A DNA stretch of 54,688 nucleotides from a virus (Duplodnaviria; Heunggongvirae; Uroviricota; Caudoviricetes). How positions within the stretch are numbered: position 1 is the stretch's first letter; every line of letters begins with the position of its first letter. The stretch spans positions 1-54,688 of IMG/VR virus record IMGVR_UViG_2541047774_000008. One strand, written 5' to 3'. Of the stretch, positions 17,549 through 53,797 are shown piece after piece. The position numbers and the translations under genes were made by a program. Below the pieces are notes generated by a model. It did no database searches. It was not told where the DNA came from and worked only from the letters and a program-made list of their open reading frames with translations.

Positions 17549-18199
17549 TTAGAAGTTTAGATTTTTCAGTGCATTCAGTGCAGAGCCCACATCCTCAGCG
17601 TCGCGCAGGGACAGTGCGCCATAGCCCCCGGCCATGAATGCTTTGGCCTGGGTACGGGAGAGTCCGACATCACGCAGGACTCTTTCGATTTTTTTCTGTT
17701 CGGGGATTTCCCCGCGGGCCAGTGCGTTCTTGACGTCGCTGATCCGCGCCTCGTCGTTAGACGGGAACGTCACCAGGCTGACTTCCCAGAGGTCGATTTC
17801 TTTCAGCAGAAAGGCTTCTTTGCTCCGGTCGTATTCCCAGTCTTTCAGGACGTACCCAATAGAAAGGCCGGTTAACGAACCGGCCTTCATGTGTGCATGT
17901 GCGCGTTTTGCGAGGGGATCATCATCAATAAGCAACCGTCCCCTGACGTAAAGCCCGACATCGTCTTCCTTCATTTCGGTGTAAACACCGATGGGTTCAT
18001 CCATGCGGTGCTGCCAGAGCAGCGCAGGTAACGCTTTTCTGTCACTCCACGCCCGCAGTGAAGCAGCAAATGCCCCGGACATCACCACATCATCGTGGCT
18101 GTCCTTTACACCAAAGACGGAGCCATACCCTTCAAACTCACCGGAGTCACTGACAGATTTCAGACTCAGCGGTACATCAAGACGTTGTTTCGTCTGCAT
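17549..18199 (-). CDS. prohead protease, HK97 family (S78)
   Basis: ORF 17549-18235; ATG at 18199 is preceded by GAAGGA; motifs GAF...GLSIGY; located between portal and capsid. Confidence 0.85.
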   Translation of the reverse strand: MQTKQRLDVPLSLKSVSDSGEFEGYGSVFGVKDSHDDVVMSGAFAASLRAWSDRKALPALLWQHRMDEPIGVYTEMKEDDVGLYVRGRLLIDDDPLAKRAHAHMKAGSLTGLSIGYVLKDWEYDRSKEAFLLKEIDLWEVSLVTFPSNDEARISDVKNALARGEIPEQKKIERVLRDVGLSRTQAKAFMAGGYGALSLRDAEDVGSALNALKNLNF

Positions 18200-19418
18200 T
18201 GGCGTTATCCTTCTGCTTACCGGCTTTACTGCCATCGGATGGTTTCGTGGTCATGTTCATCGGTGTGAGATAGACATCCCCACCGGGACGCGGATTCATA
18301 TCTTCCAGGTCGCGGCAGTCATTGGGAGAGTAAATTCCCCAGTTGATCCCGGTGGCGTAGGCTTCAAAACGGGACTTCATATCCCCGCGCAGTAACGCCC
18401 CGGCGTTAAATTTGGCGTAATAAACGCCCTGCTTACTTTTTCGTACCAGTCCGGTGTTGATCCGCTGTTCGATGCGGGTCAGATACGGCACCAGTGAATA
18501 GTTGATAAATCCCAGCCCCAGCTCTTCGATATTGTTGAAGGTGGCGCGATCGGTGTTCTGCACCATGTGCAACGGCACCCGGAACAGACGACAGATTTCT
18601 TCAAGCTGAAACTTGCGGGTTTCCAGGAACTGGCTGTCCTCGGCGTTCAGCGCCATCGACTTCCAGTCCAGCCCCATCTCAAGGATCATCGGGCGGTGAG
18701 CATTGCCAAGCCCGGTGTGACGCTCCTCAAAATCTTTCTTCAGGCGCTCATAAGCCTGATCCGACAGCGTCTGTTCTGTACGCAACACACCGGACGTCAC
18801 CGCACCATTGCTGAACAGTCTGGCCCCGTGCTCTTCGGTCGCTGCTGCCAGCGATATTGCCTCGCGGGCATAGGCGATGGGATTCAGTCCCACCAGACCG
18901 TCCAGCGTCAGCGTGCGCACATGCCAGATATCTTCCTGGCTCAGTACATCCGTGGAACCGTCCGGGAATGTGACCTGATAGACCGGCTCCCAACGACTGT
19001 TAAGCTTCGGTACCACACAACCGGGATCGACGGGCAGCAGTTCAGCCACTTCGCCAAATGCTTTCACTTTGTAGGCGTAAAAGTTTCCCCTCAGGCACAG
19101 ACAGGTGACCACCAGCTCCCAGAACTCCTGCGGCGTCATATAGCCATTGGGATGCGTGGAGATCAGCTTATGCAGACGTTCGCCGGTGGCTCTCTGTTTC
19201 AGGCTGCCGTTCAGGTGATACAGATTGCAGGGCAACATCCCGACCGACTCTGCCAGCACTCTGACGCAGGAAAAAACCGCCGTCAGTCGCATGGCCCGCT
19301 GACTGCTGATCTGCTTTCCGGTATAGGTGTCGTAAGACAACCCGATGGCATCCGCCAGCTCTGCTGGCGTGGTCACCGGCGCGTCACTTTTTCGTTGAAA
19401 TAATCCCGAAAAGAACAC
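18177..19418 (-). CDS. portal protein, HK97 family
   Basis: 413 aa, portal-like, directly upstream of protease and capsid genes. Confidence 0.9.
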   Translation of the reverse strand: MFFSGLFQRKSDAPVTTPAELADAIGLSYDTYTGKQISSQRAMRLTAVFSCVRVLAESVGMLPCNLYHLNGSLKQRATGERLHKLISTHPNGYMTPQEFWELVVTCLCLRGNFYAYKVKAFGEVAELLPVDPGCVVPKLNSRWEPVYQVTFPDGSTDVLSQEDIWHVRTLTLDGLVGLNPIAYAREAISLAAATEEHGARLFSNGAVTSGVLRTEQTLSDQAYERLKKDFEERHTGLGNAHRPMILEMGLDWKSMALNAEDSQFLETRKFQLEEICRLFRVPLHMVQNTDRATFNNIEELGLGFINYSLVPYLTRIEQRINTGLVRKSKQGVYYAKFNAGALLRGDMKSRFEAYATGINWGIYSPNDCRDLEDMNPRPGGDVYLTPMNMTTKPSDGSKAGKQKDNANADETTS

Positions 19419-19611: not shown

Positions 19612-20358
19612 TTAAAGCGAACGGATGCCCACGCTGACCAGATGTTCAGACAGATCCAGCTCCGGTTCACCACCATTGACCAGCATCCGGCTCATTGCTG
19701 TAAACATCGCAACAGGGCCGTCGATTTTGGCTTCCAGCGTGGATTTATTCGGGAAGATATTGTCGTTTTTGTCCGGTTTTACCGTAACGTTAGACATCAT
19801 CCAGTTCATGACCGGATGATTGCTGTGATGGAAACGCCCGGCATAGACCAGTGATTCCGTTTCCTTCATGGCCTCTGACAGATTGCGAACCGTCTGCGGA
19901 ACCTCCACCAGCGGTATCCCTTCTTCAGCCAGTGCCAGGCTGAACTGCATCGCGCTCCACGGGTCAAATCCCAGTTCCCTGAGGTTTTCACCACCAATCC
20001 ATTCCAGTAAGTCACTTTTTATCTGAGCATGATCGATAACATCACCATCCGTCAGAATCAGCTTATCCATCTCCGCCCACTTCCGGTAAAGTTCTGCCTG
20101 CTGCCGCGAGCATCGTTCCAGCCGTCCTTCCGGAAGCCAGAATTTAAAATCGGCATGAACATGCCCGTTATCCGTTCGCCAGAGTTTTGCCGCCGCACAG
20201 ATATCAATCTTATGAGCAAGGTCAACGCCGACCCACATGGGATACGTTTTCAGCTCATGTCGTGGGGCAATGTATTCGCACTTCTCCCACTTAATCATGT
20301 CCATCCAGGCAGACTCTGCTGTTACCCACACATTCATGTGTTTGGTAAGAATATTTCA
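19612..20358 (-). pseudogene. 3' fragment of prophage terminase large subunit gene (nuclease domain), separated from its 5' part by the island
   Basis: 241-aa ORF (19612-20337) plus in-frame upstream codons to the stop at 20356-20358 (NILTKHMNVWVTAESAW...) align with the C-terminal half of the island TerL. Confidence 0.8.
20342..20348. repeat. left copy of 7-bp direct repeat TTGGTAA at the island boundary (putative att core)
   Basis: Identical heptamer at 35313-35319; in both copies the embedded ACC codon is in frame in its terL fragment. Confidence 0.6.
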
Positions 20359-20423
20359 AGTTTTTTAAAATCACCTGTATATCAATCATTTAACATGAAA
20401 AAACAGTCTTTATAAATCATCGA

Positions 20424-28988: not shown

Positions 28989-30404
28989 TTACAGTGGGCG
29001 CACGTCATCACCGTCAATAGCAATAACGCCATCACCTTCCAGCTTGTACAGCCAGCGCCGGAAGTGTTTCATCTCATACCCCAGCTTTTTCATATCATCG
29101 CGCAATAACGGGATAGTGCATTTATCGCTGCGCTGTGTGCGTGACCGGATACAGCCCCATAGTGCGGCGTGATTCTCCGTCTTGTTTCCGGCCTCCTCGA
29201 TGCGCTCCAGTTCAACGGGTGGGCGCGGTTTATCCACAACCACCAGCGACGTGATTAACTCCTTGTCAGCGTCGGTAAAAAGCTCCACCACACGTAAATC
29301 GTATGCAGCCTCTTTCAGTTCCTCCGCGTCCTTCATTTTGGTGCAGGAGATAACCAGGGCTTCACTGTCCGCACCTTCACGGCGAATACGGTATTCAGCA
29401 TCCAGAGATGCACGAAATGCACTGGAACCACGCGCTCCCTTTGTTTCATCCTTGCCGGAATGGTGAACCACCAGCACCGTGGCCCCTGTGCGTCGTTTCA
29501 GTTCGTCACATCCACGGATAAACGCTCCCATATCCCGCGCGTCATTTTCATCATTACCGCCAAAACAACGCGCCAGCGTATCCAGAATAATCATGCGTAC
29601 CGGTTTACCCGTTTCCCGTTCAACCTGGCGGGAAGCGATGACCATTTCATCGACATCAAGCGGGACTGCCGGAAAAATCGGGCGGTTTACCAGGTACAGA
29701 TTTTCCACCCGTTCATCATTAACGATTTCCCATGCCTTGATACGGCGGGGGACACCAATGCCACCTTCACCGACAACATACATCACCGAACCATGCGCCA
29801 CCCTGCGGCCTCCCCAGTGGCGACCCGTGGCAACATGACACGCCCAGGAACACGCGAGGAACGATTTATAGGAACCGCTCGCGCCGTATGTGCTACACAA
29901 TGAATTAGCCGGAATCACGCCCTTAACGACATAATCAAGCTGTGTGTCGTACCCTGCAGATCCAATGCTCATTGGTAGCGTGGTTTTTCGCTGGCTGTAT
30001 TGCTCGTCAGTAAGAATTTCCCCGCGCTCTGCCTGTTCGCGGATCCGTTGCAGGTAGTCGTGCCAGTTCTCCAGCTTCTGGCTGTGCATTCCCTCAGGGT
30101 AATAATTCGCATCCCGTACACCTGCCGCCGCCAGCTTTTGCCCGATGGCGTTAATATTTGACGGCTTGATGTGGCCTGCCTTGTACAGCCGGACACAATA
30201 GCGACCATCGTCGATAATTTTCAGGTCTGCCAGTTCGTCAAGCTGGCTGTCTCCCAGCCATACAGGCGGCACGTTGTCGCCAGCAAGTCGCCCGTCCTGC
30301 TCCTGCCACTGTTTCGCGTGCGCCCAGGCATCACTACCCGCAAAAATAATGACTTCGGTCATTTTGTCGTGCGGCTGTTTTTTTAAGTTCGGTGCCAGTT
30401 TCAT
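28989..30404 (-). CDS. replication protein, primase/helicase-like RecA-fold ATPase
   Basis: 471 aa; Walker A-like YGASGSYKS and Walker B-like MIILDTLARCFGGNDEND; ATG at 30404 overlaps the upstream stop. Confidence 0.75.
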   Translation of the reverse strand: MKLAPNLKKQPHDKMTEVIIFAGSDAWAHAKQWQEQDGRLAGDNVPPVWLGDSQLDELADLKIIDDGRYCVRLYKAGHIKPSNINAIGQKLAAAGVRDANYYPEGMHSQKLENWHDYLQRIREQAERGEILTDEQYSQRKTTLPMSIGSAGYDTQLDYVVKGVIPANSLCSTYGASGSYKSFLACSWACHVATGRHWGGRRVAHGSVMYVVGEGGIGVPRRIKAWEIVNDERVENLYLVNRPIFPAVPLDVDEMVIASRQVERETGKPVRMIILDTLARCFGGNDENDARDMGAFIRGCDELKRRTGATVLVVHHSGKDETKGARGSSAFRASLDAEYRIRREGADSEALVISCTKMKDAEELKEAAYDLRVVELFTDADKELITSLVVVDKPRPPVELERIEEAGNKTENHAALWGCIRSRTQRSDKCTIPLLRDDMKKLGYEMKHFRRWLYKLEGDGVIAIDGDDVRPL

Positions 30405-30700
30405 TTTTTACCCCTGAATGCGTTAATCATGTTTTTCATTTTCTGAATGTTTGCCCGTGCCTTTGCGTTGCTGGTGGGCTGTTTGTGTGGTGTGGCCTGT
30501 TCCAGAGAAAAATCACGCCGGAACTGATAAACAGGCATCACGCAGTCGTAGCTGTACCCATCACGGCGGTAAGTAACGCACCGTCCGGCAATACTTTTAA
30601 TCGTTACCGTGCCGCCGTAGTTATCCCGGAAAATATCGCCGGGGCGGATTTCAGGCCGAGCGGGGCCACTGGCAGTAAAGCCAGAATTTTTCTGTTTCAT
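30401..30700 (-). CDS. hypothetical protein (99 aa)
   Basis: ORF translationally coupled to rep. Confidence 0.45.
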   Translation of the reverse strand: MKQKNSGFTASGPARPEIRPGDIFRDNYGGTVTIKSIAGRCVTYRRDGYSYDCVMPVYQFRRDFSLEQATPHKQPTSNAKARANIQKMKNMINAFRGKK

Positions 30701-30730
30701 GGTTTTATTTTCCTGTCAGTGATTCCGGTT

Positions 30731-30904
30731 TTATTCCGGCGCGAATACAGGCTTCAGAAAAAAAGCCAGAGAACCAACAAACTCATCATTTCTAAGACGG
30801 CATTGTGATTTTACTTTCCCTTTATCCAGGAATATTAAAACGCGCCCTGTGTAATCTGATGGCACATTCAGCACGACAGGTAAGTGCGCTTCATGATTAT
30901 GCAT
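30731..30904 (-). CDS. hypothetical small protein (57 aa)
   Basis: Not in the ORF track (under 60 aa); ATG at 30904 preceded by GAGGGGG; translates MHNHEAHLPVVLNVPSDYTGRVLIFLDKGKVKSQCR... Confidence 0.3.
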   Translation of the reverse strand: MHNHEAHLPVVLNVPSDYTGRVLIFLDKGKVKSQCRLRNDEFVGSLAFFLKPVFAPE

Positions 30905-31365
30905 GGTTCACCCCCTCAGGGAATTTTCTTCTGTAACGCGCCTCTGCCACATATTCAGCATAGTCCGACGCAATAACGAGAATATCGCTGCCTGTTCCTG
31001 AATGCTCAGTGGTTCCAATTAAAAAACATGCGGCCTTTATCAGGTCATTAACAACCAGCAACGCATCACCCGCATCATCCGATACGCCATCAAATTCCTG
31101 TTTCAGGGCATTAAAACGATCATCACGCATAACCCCCCCCCCCATTTTCACAATCAGCAATCAGGATAGCCCTGGCCTCATTCAGTGCCATATCAGCACT
31201 AAATTGCATAACAGCCAGTGAGTGAGGAACGAAAGCCCCGGCATATTCTGTTTCGCTGGTAGCGTGCTTATGCGCCCTGTCTGCGATAACAGAAATATCA
31301 ATCAGCGCATCAATCAGTGTTTTGATGGCTTCGGCGGCTGCGTCCGGACGGGTGTCATTGCACAT
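30897..31365 (-). CDS. hypothetical gene split by a frameshift in an 11-nt homopolymer (ORFs 31123-31365 and 30897-31160)
   Basis: Upstream ORF ends ...ENGGGGYA and downstream begins MGGGVMRDD across C11 (plus strand) at 31133-31143; a 10-nt run would fuse them into about 165 aa. Confidence 0.5.
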
Positions 31366-31723
31366 GGCGCACCCCCTGACGAATACGGGCGGCGAATACC
31401 ATCACGCAGCCAGCCGGGGATTGCTGGCGTGCTTCCTGTTCGCTGGTGGCCTCAATGGTAATCACGCGCGGTTGTGCCGTGCTCAGGGCGATAAAACGCC
31501 AGATAAAATTGTTCTCGCATTTCTGAATAAACAGCGTGTTTTCTTCGCGCCCTTTCCATGTTGCCGAGATATAGCCCATGTCATTGAGCATCTCGCAGGC
31601 ATCCACCAGCGTATCAGCGGCTACGTGTACAGTGTTTTTACCGTCAGCCATGCAATCACGGTGCACCGCCAGGAAGGTGTATATAAATTTAGGGTGAGTT
31701 TGGGTATGCTGTGTTCCAGCCAT
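31355..31723 (-). CDS. hypothetical protein (122 aa)
   Basis: Codon-like 3' portion of the long 31355-32596 ORF; ATG at 31723 with GGAG RBS (MAGTQHTQTHPKFIY...). Confidence 0.5.
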   Translation of the reverse strand: MAGTQHTQTHPKFIYTFLAVHRDCMADGKNTVHVAADTLVDACEMLNDMGYISATWKGREENTLFIQKCENNFIWRFIALSTAQPRVITIEATSEQEARQQSPAGCVMVFAARIRQGVRHVQ

Positions 31724-31798
31724 AATCGTTACTCCAGTTAACGGTTTGGTTAGACGCCCTGCATGTGTTGCGAGCACTGCGGGGCGTCGCTCTTTTAG

Positions 31799-31844
31799 GT
31801 GTATTTCACCTTTGCTTTTTAATTTACTCACTGGTGAAATACAC
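31799..31844. promoter_or_regulatory. perfect 12-bp inverted repeat GTGTATTTCACC-N22-GGTGAAATACAC in the island divergent intergenic region (putative operator)
   Basis: Lies between minus-strand gene 31355-31723 and the plus-strand regulator at 31911. Confidence 0.5.
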
Positions 31845-31910
31845 TTCAAGCCTTTTTTTATCATTTTTTTTGCGTATACTGACATACACCAATTTTTAGG
31901 AGATCCAGAA

Positions 31911-32090
31911 ATGGCAACTGGTGCAAAGAACGCAAAATCACAAATGACAACTGTCAGAATCCCACATGAAGTAATGGATGATATTGAGCAACTTAAAGAA
32001 CCTGGCGAAAGTACCGCTGGTTTTTTAGTTACTGCCGCAAAAGGCGAGATCAAACGCCGCCAGCGTCGCAAGGCCAAAGAGCAGGAATAA
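31911..32090 (+). CDS. small DNA-binding regulator, possibly ribbon-helix-helix (59 aa)
   Basis: ATG at 31911 with AGGAG RBS; MATGAKNAKSQMTTVRIPHEVMDDIEQL... and basic C-terminus; divergent from the replication block. Confidence 0.5.
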   Translation: MATGAKNAKSQMTTVRIPHEVMDDIEQLKEPGESTAGFLVTAAKGEIKRRQRRKAKEQE

Positions 32091-32144
32091 CCATCACCAG
32101 CGCCGTGGTGTGAGGAATCACGGCGGCAACCATAGGAGTAAAAG

Positions 32145-32297
32145 ATGCCAAAACTTAAAAATTGTGCACTCTGTGCGATTGTTCTAATTGTCGCCGCCTT
32201 TATCTTAAAATCATGCTTCGAGAAAAAGAATCTTTGCGGAAGCAATGAAGGCGATATATTACGGCGTGCTTGCGATATAGAGTTGAAAAAAAGTTGA
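32145..32297 (+). CDS. small Cys-rich hydrophobic peptide (50 aa)
   Basis: Not in the ORF track; ATG at 32145 with AGGAG 5 nt upstream; MPKLKNCALCAIVLIVAAFILKSCFEKK...; hairpin with U-run downstream. Confidence 0.35.
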   Translation: MPKLKNCALCAIVLIVAAFILKSCFEKKNLCGSNEGDILRRACDIELKKS

Positions 32298-32740
32298 TCA
32301 TAACCTAACCGCGACAATGCCGTAGTTTCTGTAATTACAGAACAGCTCAGGATTTGCCCACCAGCCGTAAATGTGGCATTGTTGGTTATGCTCATGCGTT
32401 GGGGATAACGTGTAGCTTGTGTCGAGGGGCCACCGTAGCGGGTGGCCTTTGTTTTGCCTGTTATCCTGCAACTATGGTCATTTCGACCACGGTTGATATA
32501 ATCCCCCCGCACAGATTCATTTTTTGCGCAGTAGGTTAATTGTTCGCAAGGGCGCTCCGGTAACGGGGCGCTTTTTGTTTTTACCCACCAGCACAATAAA
32601 AATCTTCATTTTCCATTTTTGTAAAATTTCATGCTTTCCGGACGACTGGTCATATGTCATTTTTTAGCAGAAGATTTTGCCTTGCTGGTGGGTAGCTTCC
32701 CGGTCAACACGATGTACCGTATAATCAACACCGCGTGTGG

Positions 32741-33319
32741 TTACTGAATACGCTCACCAAAGTAAAACTCAGGCTGGTATTCACGTATCAGCCTTTTTTC
32801 TTCTTCCTCCAGCTCACGCTTTTTGCGCTTACATGCCTGTAGCTCCCTCCCCTTCTCACTAGCACTTATCTGGTATTGCTCTTTGCGGCGAGAAAAATCC
32901 TGTAATGCGCCCCACGGGATACCATAAGCCCCCGTTTTTCTGATACCCGGTATCACATTTCTGAATACCCAGTTACTGAAACGATGGGCGAACGTGCCAG
33001 GCGTCGTTGCTTTGCGGCTGCGGGCTATTAGTTTGTAGAAACCTGACTCAGAGATAATGCTCATATTCTGATTTCCTCCGGGGGTGTAAGTTAAATTTAC
33101 TCCCTTTTCATCATCATCAAGCATCTGCAACGCCGTACGCGAATTGGTCAGCTCCAGCGCAGCGCAAACATCCTTTGCAACAAACCACGGATCGCCGTTC
33201 AGATACACCACGCGAACGTTCACACCATCAAAGCGCAGAACGACCAGATCACGAATATCACAGAATTTTTTCACATGACGTGCGTCACCCTTGCCCGTCA
33301 CGGCAATATTTTTATTCAT
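32741..33319 (-). CDS. Bro-N domain protein (antirepressor-like)
   Basis: 192 aa; N-terminal LRFDGVNVRVVYLNGDPWFVAKDVCAALEL matches the Bro-N pattern; coiled-coil C-terminus. Confidence 0.7.
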   Translation of the reverse strand: MNKNIAVTGKGDARHVKKFCDIRDLVVLRFDGVNVRVVYLNGDPWFVAKDVCAALELTNSRTALQMLDDDEKGVNLTYTPGGNQNMSIISESGFYKLIARSRKATTPGTFAHRFSNWVFRNVIPGIRKTGAYGIPWGALQDFSRRKEQYQISASEKGRELQACKRKKRELEEEEKRLIREYQPEFYFGERIQ

Positions 33320-33376
33320 CGCTTTCTACCTCACATACAAAAAACCCCGCATTGCGTGGTGCGGGGTTGTCGGTAA

Positions 33377-33655
33377 TTACTTATTGGCGTTTTTGTATGG
33401 GCTGTTTACTTCCTTTACTCCTGGCGGATGCATAACCCACCAGAGCACATCAGAGAGCAACCAGGAAACAGACACTTTCCCTAAATGAGCACGAGCAGGA
33501 AATGCTCCCTCCTGTTCAAGTACCCAACGTCTGCTTCTTGAAAGCCCGGTACGATTGGCACACTCATGTTCGCGTATACGGCGATCATACGGTTCGCCAT
33601 GTTCTTTCAGAATCTGAATGCGTTCTTCGGGTGTAGGATAAATAAATTTTTGCAT
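33377..33655 (-). CDS. AlpA-like small DNA-binding protein
   Basis: ORF 33377-33685; start placed at the internal Met (MQKFIYPTPE...), coordinate by arithmetic; HTH-like segment; next to a second AlpA-like gene and int. Confidence 0.5.
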   Translation of the reverse strand: MQKFIYPTPEERIQILKEHGEPYDRRIREHECANRTGLSRSRRWVLEQEGAFPARAHLGKVSVSWLLSDVLWWVMHPPGVKEVNSPYKNANK

Positions 33656-33718
33656 AAAAATATCACCTATAAAAAAACCCGCCAAAAGACGGGTTGATTA
33701 TATCTCATTTAATTTAGT

Positions 33719-33952
33719 TCAGGGTTTCCATTCACCCTTTACCCATTCCAGCACCTCAGATAAGCGCCAGACTTTTGTTTGTGGGCCAATACATATTTTT
33801 CGTGGAAATTTTCCTTCCTTTTCAAGTAACGATCTGTGTCTCCTGCCAAGAGCGGTTAACCATGCACATTCATCTTCCTTAATCATCCTGTCGATTGTTT
33901 CATCATTTTCAAGTTCTTCACGCGTAACTATTTGAATCATTACTGTCACCAC
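33719..33952 (-). CDS. alpA: AlpA-family transcriptional regulator
   Basis: 77 aa with AlpA-like HTH (AWLTALGRRHRSLLEKEGKFP); immediately downstream of int. Confidence 0.65.
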   Translation of the reverse strand: MVTVMIQIVTREELENDETIDRMIKEDECAWLTALGRRHRSLLEKEGKFPRKICIGPQTKVWRLSEVLEWVKGEWKP

Positions 33953-35141
33953 TAATTTGCTTATTCAGATAGTCGTACCACCAGTTCATAGCTTCTTTTT
34001 TTCTGTCCATATACTGGCTTCTGTTATAAACCCCGGCAACACCGCCTAATGTGTGCCCAAGCAACTGTTCAACCACATTATGTTCAAAACCATGATCACT
34101 TAGTTTTGTGGCAAACACTCTTCGCATATCATGCGCCGTCCATTTCTCCGAGTGTTTCATCCTTTTCCATGTCTTACCGATAGTTACGCTTGCCGTACAC
34201 TGACGCATATCAAACCCAATCACATTTTCTTTGTTACCTGTTATTTTTTTTAACGTAACTAACCAGTTAAACATGCCATCAGGAATCGGTCTGATTATTT
34301 CCCTGCCATTTTTGCTATGATCAGCGGGAACGCGCCATAATTTCTTATCAAAATCCCACTCTACCCAGGACGACAGTAATACTTCTGACAGTCGACAACC
34401 AAAAACTACCAGGAAACGTAAAATAATTCGGTTTTCATATGATAATTCGTGATTGTCATAATCAGTATTAATACTTCGCCATAAATCTCTGATTTCATCA
34501 TCTGTTAAAACCCTGCTTCTTCGCGCAGACTTTTTTCCCACATCACAGACCTCAAGATCATCAATTTCATGACTAATCGCGTATTTTCTTACCCTACAAA
34601 ATTTAAGCGCCTGTTTTGATATACGCAACAAAGCTCCGGCCTGTACAGGTGCTACTTTTTTTATTTTGTCAAAACACTTGATCCACATAGATATAGAGCA
34701 ATCACTAAGTGGTACATGACCAATCACCGGATAAATATGTTTACCAAAGCACTGCCTGATATGTTCTGCTCCCCTACGCTTATCCATTGCATAATTATCA
34801 AGCCAGTATTCAAGTGCCTCACGAACGGTAACAGGTTGCAAGGTGGCTTCCCGTTCAATTTTTATCTGAATCCGTGGATCTCTGCCCTCCGCAAGCCAGG
34901 TTCGACACTGATCGCGCATCTCTCTCGCTGATTTGAGACTCAGATCAGGATATTTTCCAAGTGTCAGCCAGATGGGCGCGGTTCCCCTTCCCGCCAGTCT
35001 GTAAAAGAAAACAAAACTAACACATCCGTATTTACTGACCCGTACCGAAAGCCCGTTACCATCAGCGATGGTTTCCTGCCTCTCACTCCTGCGCCCAAGC
35101 AGGGAACGAAGTTTTTTATCGCTCAGTTTGTTTAGCGCCAT
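33918..35141 (-). CDS. int: tyrosine integrase, P4-like (island)
   Basis: ORF 33918-35177; first ATG at 35141 (MALNKLSDKKLRSLLG...); C-terminal catalytic region with R, H-x-x-R and Y; sits at the island right end. Confidence 0.85.
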   Translation of the reverse strand: MALNKLSDKKLRSLLGRRSERQETIADGNGLSVRVSKYGCVSFVFFYRLAGRGTAPIWLTLGKYPDLSLKSAREMRDQCRTWLAEGRDPRIQIKIEREATLQPVTVREALEYWLDNYAMDKRRGAEHIRQCFGKHIYPVIGHVPLSDCSISMWIKCFDKIKKVAPVQAGALLRISKQALKFCRVRKYAISHEIDDLEVCDVGKKSARRSRVLTDDEIRDLWRSINTDYDNHELSYENRIILRFLVVFGCRLSEVLLSSWVEWDFDKKLWRVPADHSKNGREIIRPIPDGMFNWLVTLKKITGNKENVIGFDMRQCTASVTIGKTWKRMKHSEKWTAHDMRRVFATKLSDHGFEHNVVEQLLGHTLGGVAGVYNRSQYMDRKKEAMNWWYDYLNKQISGDSNDSNSYA

Positions 35142-35161
35142 GTGATTTATAACCCGTTTTT

Positions 35162-35182
35162 GCAATACACAGTGCAATACAC
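35162..35182. repeat. 21-bp subterminal direct repeat GCAATACACAGTGCAATACAC (putative integrase arm-type site), right end
   Basis: Direct repeat of 20424-20444 with one mismatch; just upstream of the int start. Confidence 0.6.
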
Positions 35183-35312
35183 AAATGATGAAAACAGCCA
35201 GAACCTTCCAGAAAAAACAAAAACGACGAACAAGAAAAAATCTTTTTCTTTCATTTGGTTACTAAAAAAATCAGGACAGGTCGCACTGTTGTTACGGCGT
35301 GATGTTACTTTC

Positions 35313-35319
35313 TTGGTAA
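35313..35319. repeat. right copy of 7-bp direct repeat TTGGTAA at the island boundary (putative att core)
   Basis: Matches 20342-20348; lies within the FFTKK codons of the terL 5' fragment. Confidence 0.6.
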
Positions 35320-36340
35320 AAAAATTCACCCGCGCAGAGACCTGTTCTTTCGCTTTTTTCGCCAGGCGACGCAGATCATCCCAGCGTTTACAGATGCCCA
35401 GGCCGGGATTCGCTTTCTGCCAGACCGTTTCATCAAACGGATCATCTCCCTCATCGAGGGTGTAAATAATCGCAAAGTAGGAGTCGTCTTTTACAGCGCC
35501 CTCCACATCGCTGTTATAGCCACGCAATACCTTGATGGCGTAATCACGCTGCTCGTAACAAATCCCTTCCTTGTTAAACCCTGCCGTGGTGATACCAAAT
35601 AACAGGGACTGCAGGCGGGCACCGGTTGCCGTTTCCAGAACGTCCCACACGTCGCGGGTTTTATGTGCATGCAGCTCATCAATAATGGCGCAGTGGATGT
35701 TCAGACCATCCAGGTTGTTTGCATCCGAGGAAAGCGGTTCAAATTTTGATGCGCTCTGCTCCTGGTAAATCGCCAGCTTGTTGAAATCAAACAACCGCCC
35801 GAGTGTCGACCGGGCTTTTCTGACCATATTTTTGGCGTCTTCAAACACAATTCTGGCCTGGTCACGCGTGGTGGCGGCTGAATACACCTCAGCACCGCCT
35901 TCACCATCTGCCCCCGTCATATACAGGCCGATACCCGATGACAGAGTTGATTTTGCGTTTTTACGGGCGACTTCGTTGTACGCCGTCCGGAACCGGCGCA
36001 CCATCACCGGACGTCCGCTGCCATCGCTGCGCATGACAACTTCCCCGGTCTCTTCATTCACCAGCGGAATGACAAAACCAAAAATATTAATGAGGATAAA
36101 TACATGCCAGTCCATCAGTTCAATGGGCTGGCCTGCCAGCGCCCCTTTTACATGAGGCACAAATTTGTAGAAATTCAGGATGTGCTGCGCACGGGGTTCA
36201 CTGAAATAAATCCCCCGCTCTTCGCCGTACTTCAGATCATCAAGAAAACGCTGGCAGGCCAAGCGGACAAATTCGCCAGCAACAATTTCTCCTGCGACAA
36301 CACGTTCGGCGTAGCGGATCCCGTCAGCCACTTTTGCCAT
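35313..36340 (-). pseudogene. 5' fragment of prophage terminase large subunit gene (ATPase domain), separated from its 3' part by the island
   Basis: ORF 35147-36340; Walker A-like EVARKNAKST and Walker B-like AIIDELHAH; similarity to the island TerL stops at ...ARVNFFTKK, after which the frame runs into island DNA. Confidence 0.8.
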
Positions 36341-40317: not shown

Positions 40318-40392
<75 letters not shown>

Positions 40393-40395
40393 ATA

Positions 40396-40471
<76 letters not shown>

Positions 40472-40473
40472 AC

Positions 40474-40550
40474 TGGACCGCCACCGGGGACTCGAACCTC
40501 GCACACTCAACTTAAAGGGTTGACGCTCTTTCCTGATGAGCTAGTGGCGG
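40474..40550 (-). tRNA. atypical tRNA-like gene (anticodon loop CCUUUAA, possibly Lys-UUU-like)
   Basis: 77 nt; acceptor CCGCCAC/GTGGCGG, D-stem GCTC/GAGC, T-loop TTCGAGT, CCA encoded; C at position 33 and one A-C mismatch in the T-stem. Confidence 0.5.
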
Positions 40551-40551
40551 C

Positions 40552-40627
40552 TGGTGGCCCTTGCTGGATTTGAACCAGCGACCTGGCGATTATGAGTCGC
40601 TCGCTCTCACCACTGAGCTAAAGGGCC
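40552..40627 (-). tRNA. tRNA with CAU anticodon (Ile2/Met type)
   Basis: 76-nt cloverleaf: acceptor GGCCCTT/AAGGGCC, anticodon loop CUCAUAA, T-loop TTCAAAT, CCA encoded. Confidence 0.75.
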
Positions 40628-44041: not shown

Positions 44042-44197
44042 TTACTCCTCAGGTTCGTAAGCTGTGAAGACAGCGACCTCCGTCTGGCCAGTTCGGATTC
44101 GTACCTCGCAGAGGTCTTTCCTCGTTACCAGTGCCGTCACAATGACGGTTAAACAGATGACGATCAGGGCGATTAACATCGCCTTTTGCTGCTTCAT
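44042..44197 (-). CDS. hokD: Hok/Gef-family type I toxin
   Basis: ORF 44042-44254; ATG at 44197 gives 51 aa MKQQKAMLIALIVICLTVIVTALVTRKDLCEVRIRTGQTEVAVFTAYEPEE, preceded by AGGAG. Confidence 0.8.
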   Translation of the reverse strand: MKQQKAMLIALIVICLTVIVTALVTRKDLCEVRIRTGQTEVAVFTAYEPEE

Positions 44198-44434
44198 AGC
44201 CTGCTTCTCCTTGCCTTTCGGCACGTAAGAGGCTAACCTAGATTTGCCGTTCATAGATTGAGCCTCAGATTAATGTTAAGCGTCTTGCCGGACGCGTAAT
44301 GTTAACTGGGGCTTTTCTCTATCTGCCTTTCAGTGTTCATGCCTGAGACAGATAGCCTCAAGCACCCGCAGCCATTCTACTTAACTCACGTCACCTCGCC
44401 AATATGAAATCAATCAGAAAGGTGATCCATAAAA

Positions 44435-49229: not shown

Positions 49230-49287
49230 TTTCTGGTGACGTTTGGCGGTATCAGTTTTACTCCGTGACTGCTCTGCCGCCCTTTTT
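49230..49287 (+). ncRNA. dicF: DicF small RNA
   Basis: Sequence TTTCTGGTGACGTTTGGCGGTATCAGTTTTACTCCGTGACTGCTCTGCCGCCCTTTTT matches DicF as I recall it, with a 3' GC stem and U-run, between ydfC and dicB. Confidence 0.75.
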
Positions 49288-53707: not shown

Positions 53708-53797
53708 TGGCGGAGAGAGGGGGATTTGAACCCCCGGTGGAGTTGCCCCCACTCCGGTTTTCGAGACCGGTCCGTTCAGCCGCTCCGGCATCTCTCC
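53708..53797 (-). tRNA. serU: tRNA-Ser (anticodon CGA)
   Basis: 90-nt cloverleaf with long variable arm; acceptor GGAGAGA/TCTCTCC, anticodon loop CUCGAAA, CCA encoded; 3' end faces the integrase. Confidence 0.9.

Follow-up and report, generated by a model that had tools for sequence, protein, structure and literature searches.

A run of eleven identical nucleotides at the point where two open reading frames (ORFs) change frame raises the question of whether one gene has been broken there or two genes meet. Such a run lies in the 54,688-nt stretch of viral DNA analysed here (IMG/VR record IMGVR_UViG_2541047774_000008, hereafter the window, to which all positions refer). An earlier note made from the letters alone had described the run as splitting a single gene, and had proposed a phase-variable switch, transcriptional or translational slippage, or a sequencing error as its origin. 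We therefore compared the locus with its homologues and weighed these readings against that of two intact, overlapping genes.

A G11 tract at the junction of two overlapping small genes

The C11 run of the plus strand, G11 on the coding (minus) strand, occupies positions 31133-31143, exactly as first described, where the two ORFs change frame. It is the longest homopolymer of the 54.7-kb window, the runners-up being 8 nt long. The rarity ascribed to it was confirmed by dinucleotide-preserving shuffles (n = 100), in which such runs averaged 0.01 per window (one run in 1 of the 100 shuffles). Both mechanically called ORFs exist as reported: 31123-31365 on the minus strand encodes 80 aa with the C-terminus ENGGGGYA, and 30897-31160 on the minus strand has a TTG start and contains MGGGVMRDD. 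For the latter we moved the start to the ATG at 31130-31128. Sequence comparison supports this ATG as the start of orfB itself; the TTG at 31160 and an ATG just 5' of the run are unsupported. The features around the tract are as follows.

G11 tract, 31133 to 31143, minus strand: glycine run at the 3' end of orfA; probable Shine-Dalgarno (SD) sequence of orfB; hypervariable in length among homologues.
orfA, 31365 to 31123, minus strand: 80 aa, ending ...CENGGGGYA; predicted small helical protein; phrog_5146.
orfB, 31130 to 30897, minus strand: 77 aa, beginning MRDDRFN at ATG 31130-31128; phrog_24341.
orfA/orfB overlap of 8 nt, ATGCGTGA, 31123 to 31130, minus strand: orfB start codon within the last codons and stop of orfA.
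Nucleotide-invariant block, 31092 to 31161, minus strand: about 70 nt, from about -28 to +39 relative to the orfB ATG.

In the window, orfA ends ...AAT GGG GGG GGG GGT TAT GCG TGA, with the orfB ATG embedded (CGT is its next codon). The tract lies inside orfA, and 2 nt separate it from the orfB ATG. G11 is G8 plus one GGG (Gly) codon in the same frame, G8 being the commonest two-gene length among homologues, and it leaves the same overlap as in the gene pairs annotated by RefSeq; orfB was therefore placed at 31130 to 30897.

Editing the run in silico showed what each length would encode. Lengths of 3n+2 (G8, G11) end orfA with ...GG(G)YA and give two genes. Lengths of 3n+1 (G7, G10, G13) open a single frame of 154-156 aa, and the product of G7 and G10 is an in-frame orfA-Gly-Val-orfB fusion of 154/155 aa. 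Lengths of 3n (G9, G12) give orfA an 11-aa out-of-frame tail, ...GG(G)LCVMIVLMP, with the stop codon 28 nt inside orfB. Each of the three frames keeps both protein modules, and none removes orfA or orfB. The earlier prediction that one G fewer yields a single frame was right, G10 opening that frame, but the length given for it, about 165 aa, was not: the product has 155 aa. The layout is that of a coupled pair, in which the stop of orfA overlaps the start of orfB and an SD-like run lies inside the upstream gene; dependence of orfB on the translation of orfA is predicted from it.

The pair lies in a cf-PICI-like island

The two genes belong to an island inserted in a prophage, with the following features.

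Island, 20338 to 35146, minus strand: about 14.8 kb, cf-PICI-like, inside the prophage terL gene.
Icd-like host cell-division inhibitor gene, 31355 to 31723, minus strand: NF033153 phage_ICD_like, E = 3e-22; so annotated by RefSeq in homologues.
orf57, 30731 to 30904, minus strand: phrog_340; next coupled gene after orfB.
DUF4222 gene, 30401 to 30700, minus strand: PF13973, E = 4e-24.
AAA_25/RepA-type replicative helicase gene, 28989 to 30404, minus strand: PF13481, E = 3e-44; phrog_2850.
RNA features of the surrounding prophage: 40318-40627 (minus), 44192-44367 (minus), 49231-49282 (plus) and 53708-53797 (minus).

The gene order of the island is integrase, two AlpA genes, Bro-N, Icd-like, orfA, orfB, orf57, DUF4222, helicase, SSB and a packaging module (capsid, protease, portal, adaptor, HNH, TerS and TerL). 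The Icd-like gene is directly upstream of orfA and overlaps its start by 11 nt. Elements of the cf-PICI class measure 10-18 kb and carry an integrase, regulation and replication modules and a packaging module of their own (10.1101/2025.02.11.637232). The island has a size within this range, an integrase, regulation and replication genes (int, AlpA, Bro-N, AAA_25 helicase) and a packaging module, and neither lysis genes nor a complete tail module were seen among those ORFs inside 20338-35146 that were typed. It thus resembles cf-PICIs such as EcCIEDL933 in its size of about 14.8 kb and in its integrase, regulation, replication and packaging modules, with the difference that the orfA/orfB pair is not specific to the cf-PICI backbone, being also found in islands with P4-type primase or DUF5906 replicases. 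The gene content fits a cf-PICI-like element, and a helper relation is predicted from it.

Several other features of the island and its surroundings were recorded. The island splits the prophage terL into a left fragment (19612-20337, minus strand) and a right fragment (35147-36340, minus strand), matching positions 449-671 and 169-448 of the phrog_9 TerL profile, respectively; the prophage portal (18177-19418) and protease (17549-18235) genes lie beyond the left fragment. A satellite that disrupts the packaging gene of its resident prophage by integration is notable in its own right. When the island ends were searched for att sites in the form of direct repeats, no convincing pair of at least 16 nt emerged. 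Near the predicted island end, a C8 run (20589-20596) lies in the short non-coding stretch between the island TerL gene and the left prophage terL fragment. The SSB gene is followed by a PerC-family gene (PF06069), at about 27.9-28.3 kb of the window and at 6100-6243 of L250, a Logan assembly of SRR6427413; PMC11773190 links PerC-like regulators on E. coli PICIs to LEE regulation. In orf57 a further homopolymer varies, the T7 of the coding strand (plus-strand A7, 30758-30764): T8 gives an intact product of 66 aa (L003 and 3 other loci), T7 one of 57 aa, flagged as frameshifted by RefSeq (window and L001), and T9 one of 50 aa (1 locus), this gene type being present in only 8 of the compared loci. 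The surrounding prophage has a tRNA cluster (Gly-Thr-Lys-Met), the sok antitoxin RNA, the DicF sRNA and a tRNA-Ser(cga); this last tRNA gene, near the window end, may be the prophage attachment site.

Tract length varies among homologues

Among 5,426 complete E. coli genomes, 1,519 contained the homologous region. Scanning IMG/VR with a pattern that itself required the tract yielded 84 loci, which were counted with four E. coli loci (L001-L004): G7 in 24, G8 in 36, G9 in 18, G10 in 4, G11 in 1, G5TGG in 3 and G8TGG in 1. In a protein-anchored census, loci were found through their proteins and were not ascertained on the tract; among the 54 with orfA upstream, the junction was G7 in 12, G8 in 22, G9 in 11, G10 in 4, G4 in 3, and G4TGGG and G8TGG in 1 each. 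Complete E. coli genomes, in which length was read from the span of full-length matches to an invariant 75-nt block, carried G7 (n = 18), G8 (n = 13), G9 (n = 8), G10 (n = 3) and an 11-nt run (n = 2). PGAP annotated one CDS for all G7 and G10 finished genomes and two for all with G8, G9 or G11. This comparison with the homologous gene in related islands, a check proposed in the earlier note, thus recovered both split and fused forms. Lengths ranged from G7 to G12 overall and from G7 to G11 in finished genomes. All three frames were common in isolates, and the distribution over the protein-anchored loci was smooth and unimodal around G8.

The tract had also been called slippage-prone, and differences between close relatives agree with this, since length varied even on otherwise identical alleles, with G7 and G10 fusing the ORFs. 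Among 26 locus pairs with identical 470-nt flanks, 11 differed in tract length; L003 and L086 share 3.8 kb of identical flanks and carry G7 and G8. The orfA allele of the window, with all other residues identical, was found with G8 (25 contigs), G9 (22), G10 in fused form (2), G11 (4-6) and G12 (1). A kilobase-scale flank comparison, ungapped and broken by indels, left 7 usable near-identical island pairs (at least 3 kb), of which 6 had the same tract length. In the strain series 2020S05-013 (H12-H18), seven genomes share the single-CDS state, confirmed as G7 by match span in five. Because 6 of the 7 near-identical pairs agree and the seven 2020S05-013 genomes are alike, the rate of tract change, as judged from these alignments, is high relative to substitutions but not extreme. 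Homopolymer errors in long-read or older assemblies could account for part of the polymorphism seen in the population.

The run is a probable Shine-Dalgarno sequence within an invariant block

Predicted duplex energies with the anti-SD were -10.7 kcal/mol for orfA, -11.1 kcal/mol for orfB (within the run) and -12.5 kcal/mol for orf57. The orfB value saturates at seven or more Gs, and G4 gives -5.4 kcal/mol. All junctions of the operon are coupled overlaps after a G5 motif, and the ATGnnnTGA/TAA design is common to icd-orfA (CAGGGGGTGCGCCATGTGCAATGA), orfA-orfB and orfB-orf57 (GAGGGGGTGAACCATGCATAA). The G-run is the probable SD of orfB, embedded in the last codons of orfA; if it has this role, GGAGGTGGC in place of the run would alter orfB expression. 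In phage operons, coupled overlaps (ATGA or ATGnnnTGA) likewise pair an SD inside the upstream gene with a stop/start overlap, which is 8 nt long at this junction; what differs here is that the SD appears to have grown into an unstable homopolymer of 7-12 nt abutting TT-ATG. A scan for promoters and terminators returned no such site at the tract.

The tract sits in the invariant block, which spans the final ~6 codons of orfA and continues through the first ~10-13 of orfB. In the 54 protein-anchored loci, third-position diversity was 0.0 over these ~70 nt versus 0.35-0.6 further out, and the flanking orfA and orfB alleles are mosaic, about 20% diverged. Since the block covers the translation-initiation region of orfB and separates mosaic alleles, the likeliest explanation is a constraint on translation initiation of orfB and/or a recombination joint between mosaic alleles. 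The run had at least seven Gs in 50 of the 54 loci and was interrupted in 2, although nearby synonymous sites are diverse. The rarely interrupted run and the invariant block together could mean that the tract is kept by selection for more than its SD role.

Probable replication slippage at a tolerant junction, and the alternative of a selected switch

We consider it probable that the G11 tract is a genuine, heritable, slipped-strand-prone homopolymer that joins orfA and orfB with all three frames tolerated, the two being separate small genes, translationally coupled, in the early leftward operon of a cf-PICI-like E. coli phage satellite. The run would do two jobs in the mRNA, supplying the glycine codons that end orfA and a G-rich SD for orfB, whose ATG follows 2 nt on. 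As the run abuts TT-ATG, at least eight Gs would be needed to set five Gs at normal spacing. Long homopolymers are known slippage sites, and a run of this length would slip during replication, altering its length much faster than point substitutions build up. From the population data and this general behaviour of homopolymers, we infer slipped-strand mispairing as the cause of the length variation. Length modulo 3 would then set the architecture, 3n+2 giving two coupled proteins, 3n+1 a fusion and 3n a tailed orfA, and the G11 of the window would be the ordinary two-gene state plus one glycine, not a broken gene. All these states would be tolerated because both modules are intact and orfB keeps its own start in each; the frequencies of the three states suggest that they are nearly neutral.

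The same variation might instead be an adaptive contingency (phase-variable) switch, in which the separate A+B, fused A-B and tailed-A states alter satellite behaviour, such as helper interference, derepression or replication control, and are selected as bet-hedging. We regard this as unlikely, and as slightly less likely still that the poly-G is a selected switch of cf-PICI and P4-like E. coli satellites generally, toggling two early-operon proteins. The persistence of the run amid synonymous diversity argues for selection, as do the presence of all three frames in isolates, which recalls classical contingency loci, and the variable homopolymer in the next gene, orf57. In other bacteria, SSRs are well-established reversible high-frequency switches (PMC5084427 and PMC1891110). 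Against a switch, the locus has no OFF state, since no frame abolishes a module and orfB keeps its predicted SD and ATG. Lengths follow a smooth, unimodal distribution in which particular frames are not enriched, SD function with its needed spacing also explains the conservation of the tract, and alleles that are stably fused persist beside others that are stably split. Profile searches (Pfam, NCBIfam, PHROGs, PDB) pointed to no known phenotype for orfA or orfB.

The poly-G/C contingency loci of Neisseria, Haemophilus, Campylobacter, Helicobacter and Bordetella also have a coding G/C run of at least 7 nt whose strain-variable length shifts the frame, and slipped-strand mispairing is the presumed common cause (PMC5084427 and PMC1891110). 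As at such loci, the tract lies in a coding region and its length is polymorphic among close relatives. Its length shifts change the product into split, fused or tailed forms, the predicted SD and ATG of orfB being kept throughout. The outcome is not ON/OFF, every frame keeping both modules and the downstream gene having its own start, and the run lies on a phage satellite, not in a gene for a surface structure. To our knowledge, SSR switching is not the usual mechanism in mismatch-repair-proficient E. coli. In H. pylori and Campylobacter, tracts near the 3' ends of genes vary the C-terminus or fuse adjacent ORFs. The present tract is alike in altering a C-terminus or fusing an ORF to the next one, and differs in that the run is also the apparent SD of the next gene and that stable fused and split alleles coexist.

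Programmed recoding is poorly compatible with the variable frame relation

The slippage reading of the earlier note would require that RNA polymerase slippage or ribosomal frameshifting (on G GGG GGN) produce the A-B fusion at a set ratio, which we find improbable. The ORFs do overlap, with the homopolymer exactly at the frame change, long homopolymers are generally known to slip, and the fusion is evidently functional, being fixed in some lineages. Recoding of this kind needs a fixed frame relation, whereas all three occur on the same allele. The downstream stimulatory structure is likewise absent: the 151 nt that surround the tract fold no more stably than shuffled versions (z = -0.56). Locked split alleles interrupt the run, and Rfam at its gathering threshold gave no family or frameshift element at the junction. 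Overlapping ORFs, a slippery homopolymer and a viable fusion are also features of IS3-family orfA-orfB, dnaX tau/gamma and the tail chaperone G/GT; here, unlike in those systems, the frame relation is not conserved, a stimulatory structure is lacking and the variation is in the DNA. On the sequence comparison, a conserved programmed frameshift is disfavoured, and the reading of a slipping junction between two coupled genes is retained.

orfA and orfB are separable genes under purifying selection

Pooled pairwise pN/pS in frame was 0.31 for orfA and 0.35 for orfB, and 1.3-1.9 in the other frames (1.5-1.9 for orfA). By this measure purifying selection acts on each half, whether the loci are split or fused. 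PHROGs holds a family for each of the three forms: orfA alone (phrog_5146), orfB alone (phrog_24341) and the fusion (phrog_2512). For G8 and G11 alike, RefSeq annotates two CDSs that overlap by 8 nt, as in strains APEC17 and ETEC1730 (G8, CDSs of 79 and 77 aa), and in strain P27 (G7) it annotates one CDS of 154 aa; an orfB CDS with the same start is annotated in L001, L002, L004 and L251. The exact orfB protein was found on 96 contigs, and fused homologues of 154/155 aa are numerous.

Each gene was also found without the other, which is the finding that the earlier note had itself named as evidence against a split gene. An orfA-like gene lacking the glycine run is followed in L089 by an unrelated gene instead of orfB. 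In L004 (strain JNU), another upstream gene precedes the same orfB, read from the same ATG, and so it does in 24 IMG/VR loci. An exhaustive HMMER search of 1.84 billion representatives returned only 48 relatives; the distant ones are mostly stand-alone orfA-like or orfB-like proteins (P0137 and P0135 being stand-alone distant relatives of orfA), and the orfB-like ones all start at the equivalent Met. L090 is a natural, tract-free orfA-orfB fusion adjoining DUF4222 and a DUF927 primase.

The gene upstream of orfB in L004 and the 24 IMG/VR loci (e.g. L112, L154 and L157) is unrelated, encodes ~122 aa and ends ...CAGGGGGGTAAACATGCGTGA. Its junction has a run of G6-7 located 5 nt before the same ATG and an 8-nt overlap, and the run length is nearly constant, which is consistent with length-dependent instability.

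Some alleles appear locked. G4 (CEYGVMRDD) and the tract-free L090 are fused; G4TGGG, G5TGG and G8TGG are split, with GGTGGTGGC likewise a locked split form. As read from these junctions, a single element family holds fused as well as split alleles that are stable. Since orfA and orfB are separable modules that can work apart or fused, the comparison suggests that they act together.

These data bear on the reading of the locus as a pseudogene, in which one ancestral gene of ~155 aa has been frameshifted and is decaying. The numerous 154/155-aa fused homologues and the PHROGs fusion family would fit such an ancestor, but purifying selection acts on both halves in split and fused loci, the ATGCGTGA overlap of the split state is a designed one with an SD, as at the neighbouring junctions, each half occurs alone with other partners and the most distant relatives are mostly stand-alone; decay of a single gene is highly improbable. 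The earlier claim that the homopolymer splits a gene, with G11 in the same two-gene frame as G8, both ORFs under selection and each found alone, was accordingly rejected.

Pfam and NCBIfam had no family for orfA, orfB or orf57, and a PDB profile search gave no match (the top entry was calreticulin, E = 0.84). Because a tblastn search with the fusion found no match in 50,697 INPHARED phage records, orfA/orfB would not be a gene of P4 proper. An AlphaFold2 model built from a 33-sequence alignment was weak (pLDDT 52, pTM 0.33) and was used for the helix/linker layout alone: it places two helical halves on either side of a low-confidence linker that contains the glycine run. A glycine run at this modelled position would agree with extra glycines, or a fusion, being tolerated.

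The eleven-nucleotide length is found in independent sequences

That the run is a sequencing or assembly error, with a true length of G10 (one gene) or G8, is very improbable. Homopolymers of 11 nt are error-prone on several platforms, but the exact G11 protein (WP_021530543.1/EQR39488.1) was found on 4-6 contigs (NCBI and Logan), and 6.2 kb of the independent assembly L250, the G11 run among them, match the window without a difference. G11 is also present on a ~20% diverged allele in the finished genome NZ_CP148493 and on L032, an IMG/VR metagenome contig, and it is in frame with the modal G8. In NZ_CP148493, 49 of 243 nt of orfA and 52 of 234 nt of orfB differ; the island there has another replicase, and the annotation of the locus shows two genes. 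The error proposed by the earlier note is, on these comparisons, essentially excluded.

Significance of a junction that probably tolerates every frame

Our search of the literature on poly-G or homopolymeric tracts in P4-like or PICI satellites and E. coli prophages found no paper on the orfA/orfB locus. The biology is ordinary in kind and unusual for E. coli, a species in which long G/C runs are otherwise rare. The locus is a trap for annotation. Its G7-G12 alleles occur naturally and call for neither a frameshifted-pseudogene label nor repair by polishing, and the number of genes reported by gene callers will alternate between one and two. It is also a clear natural case of a homopolymer being tolerated since all three frames leave both proteins intact.

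If the tract were a selected switch, it would diversify the response of clonal satellites to helper phages, or their interference with them, perhaps tuning orfB through SD spacing and coupling, and the orf57 homopolymer and the invariant 70-nt block would be parts of one designed variable module. Phage satellites would thereby gain their first described SSR phase-variation system, one of a rare kind for E. coli, and adaptive switching would add SSR-type phase variation to the conflict between satellites and helpers.

Under the reading of two coupled genes, which we prefer, the coexistence of fused and split alleles makes orfA and orfB, by Rosetta-stone logic, likely physical partners. This would give a handle on two uncharacterised early genes that lie between an Icd-like inhibitor and the replicase in widespread E. 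coli satellites.
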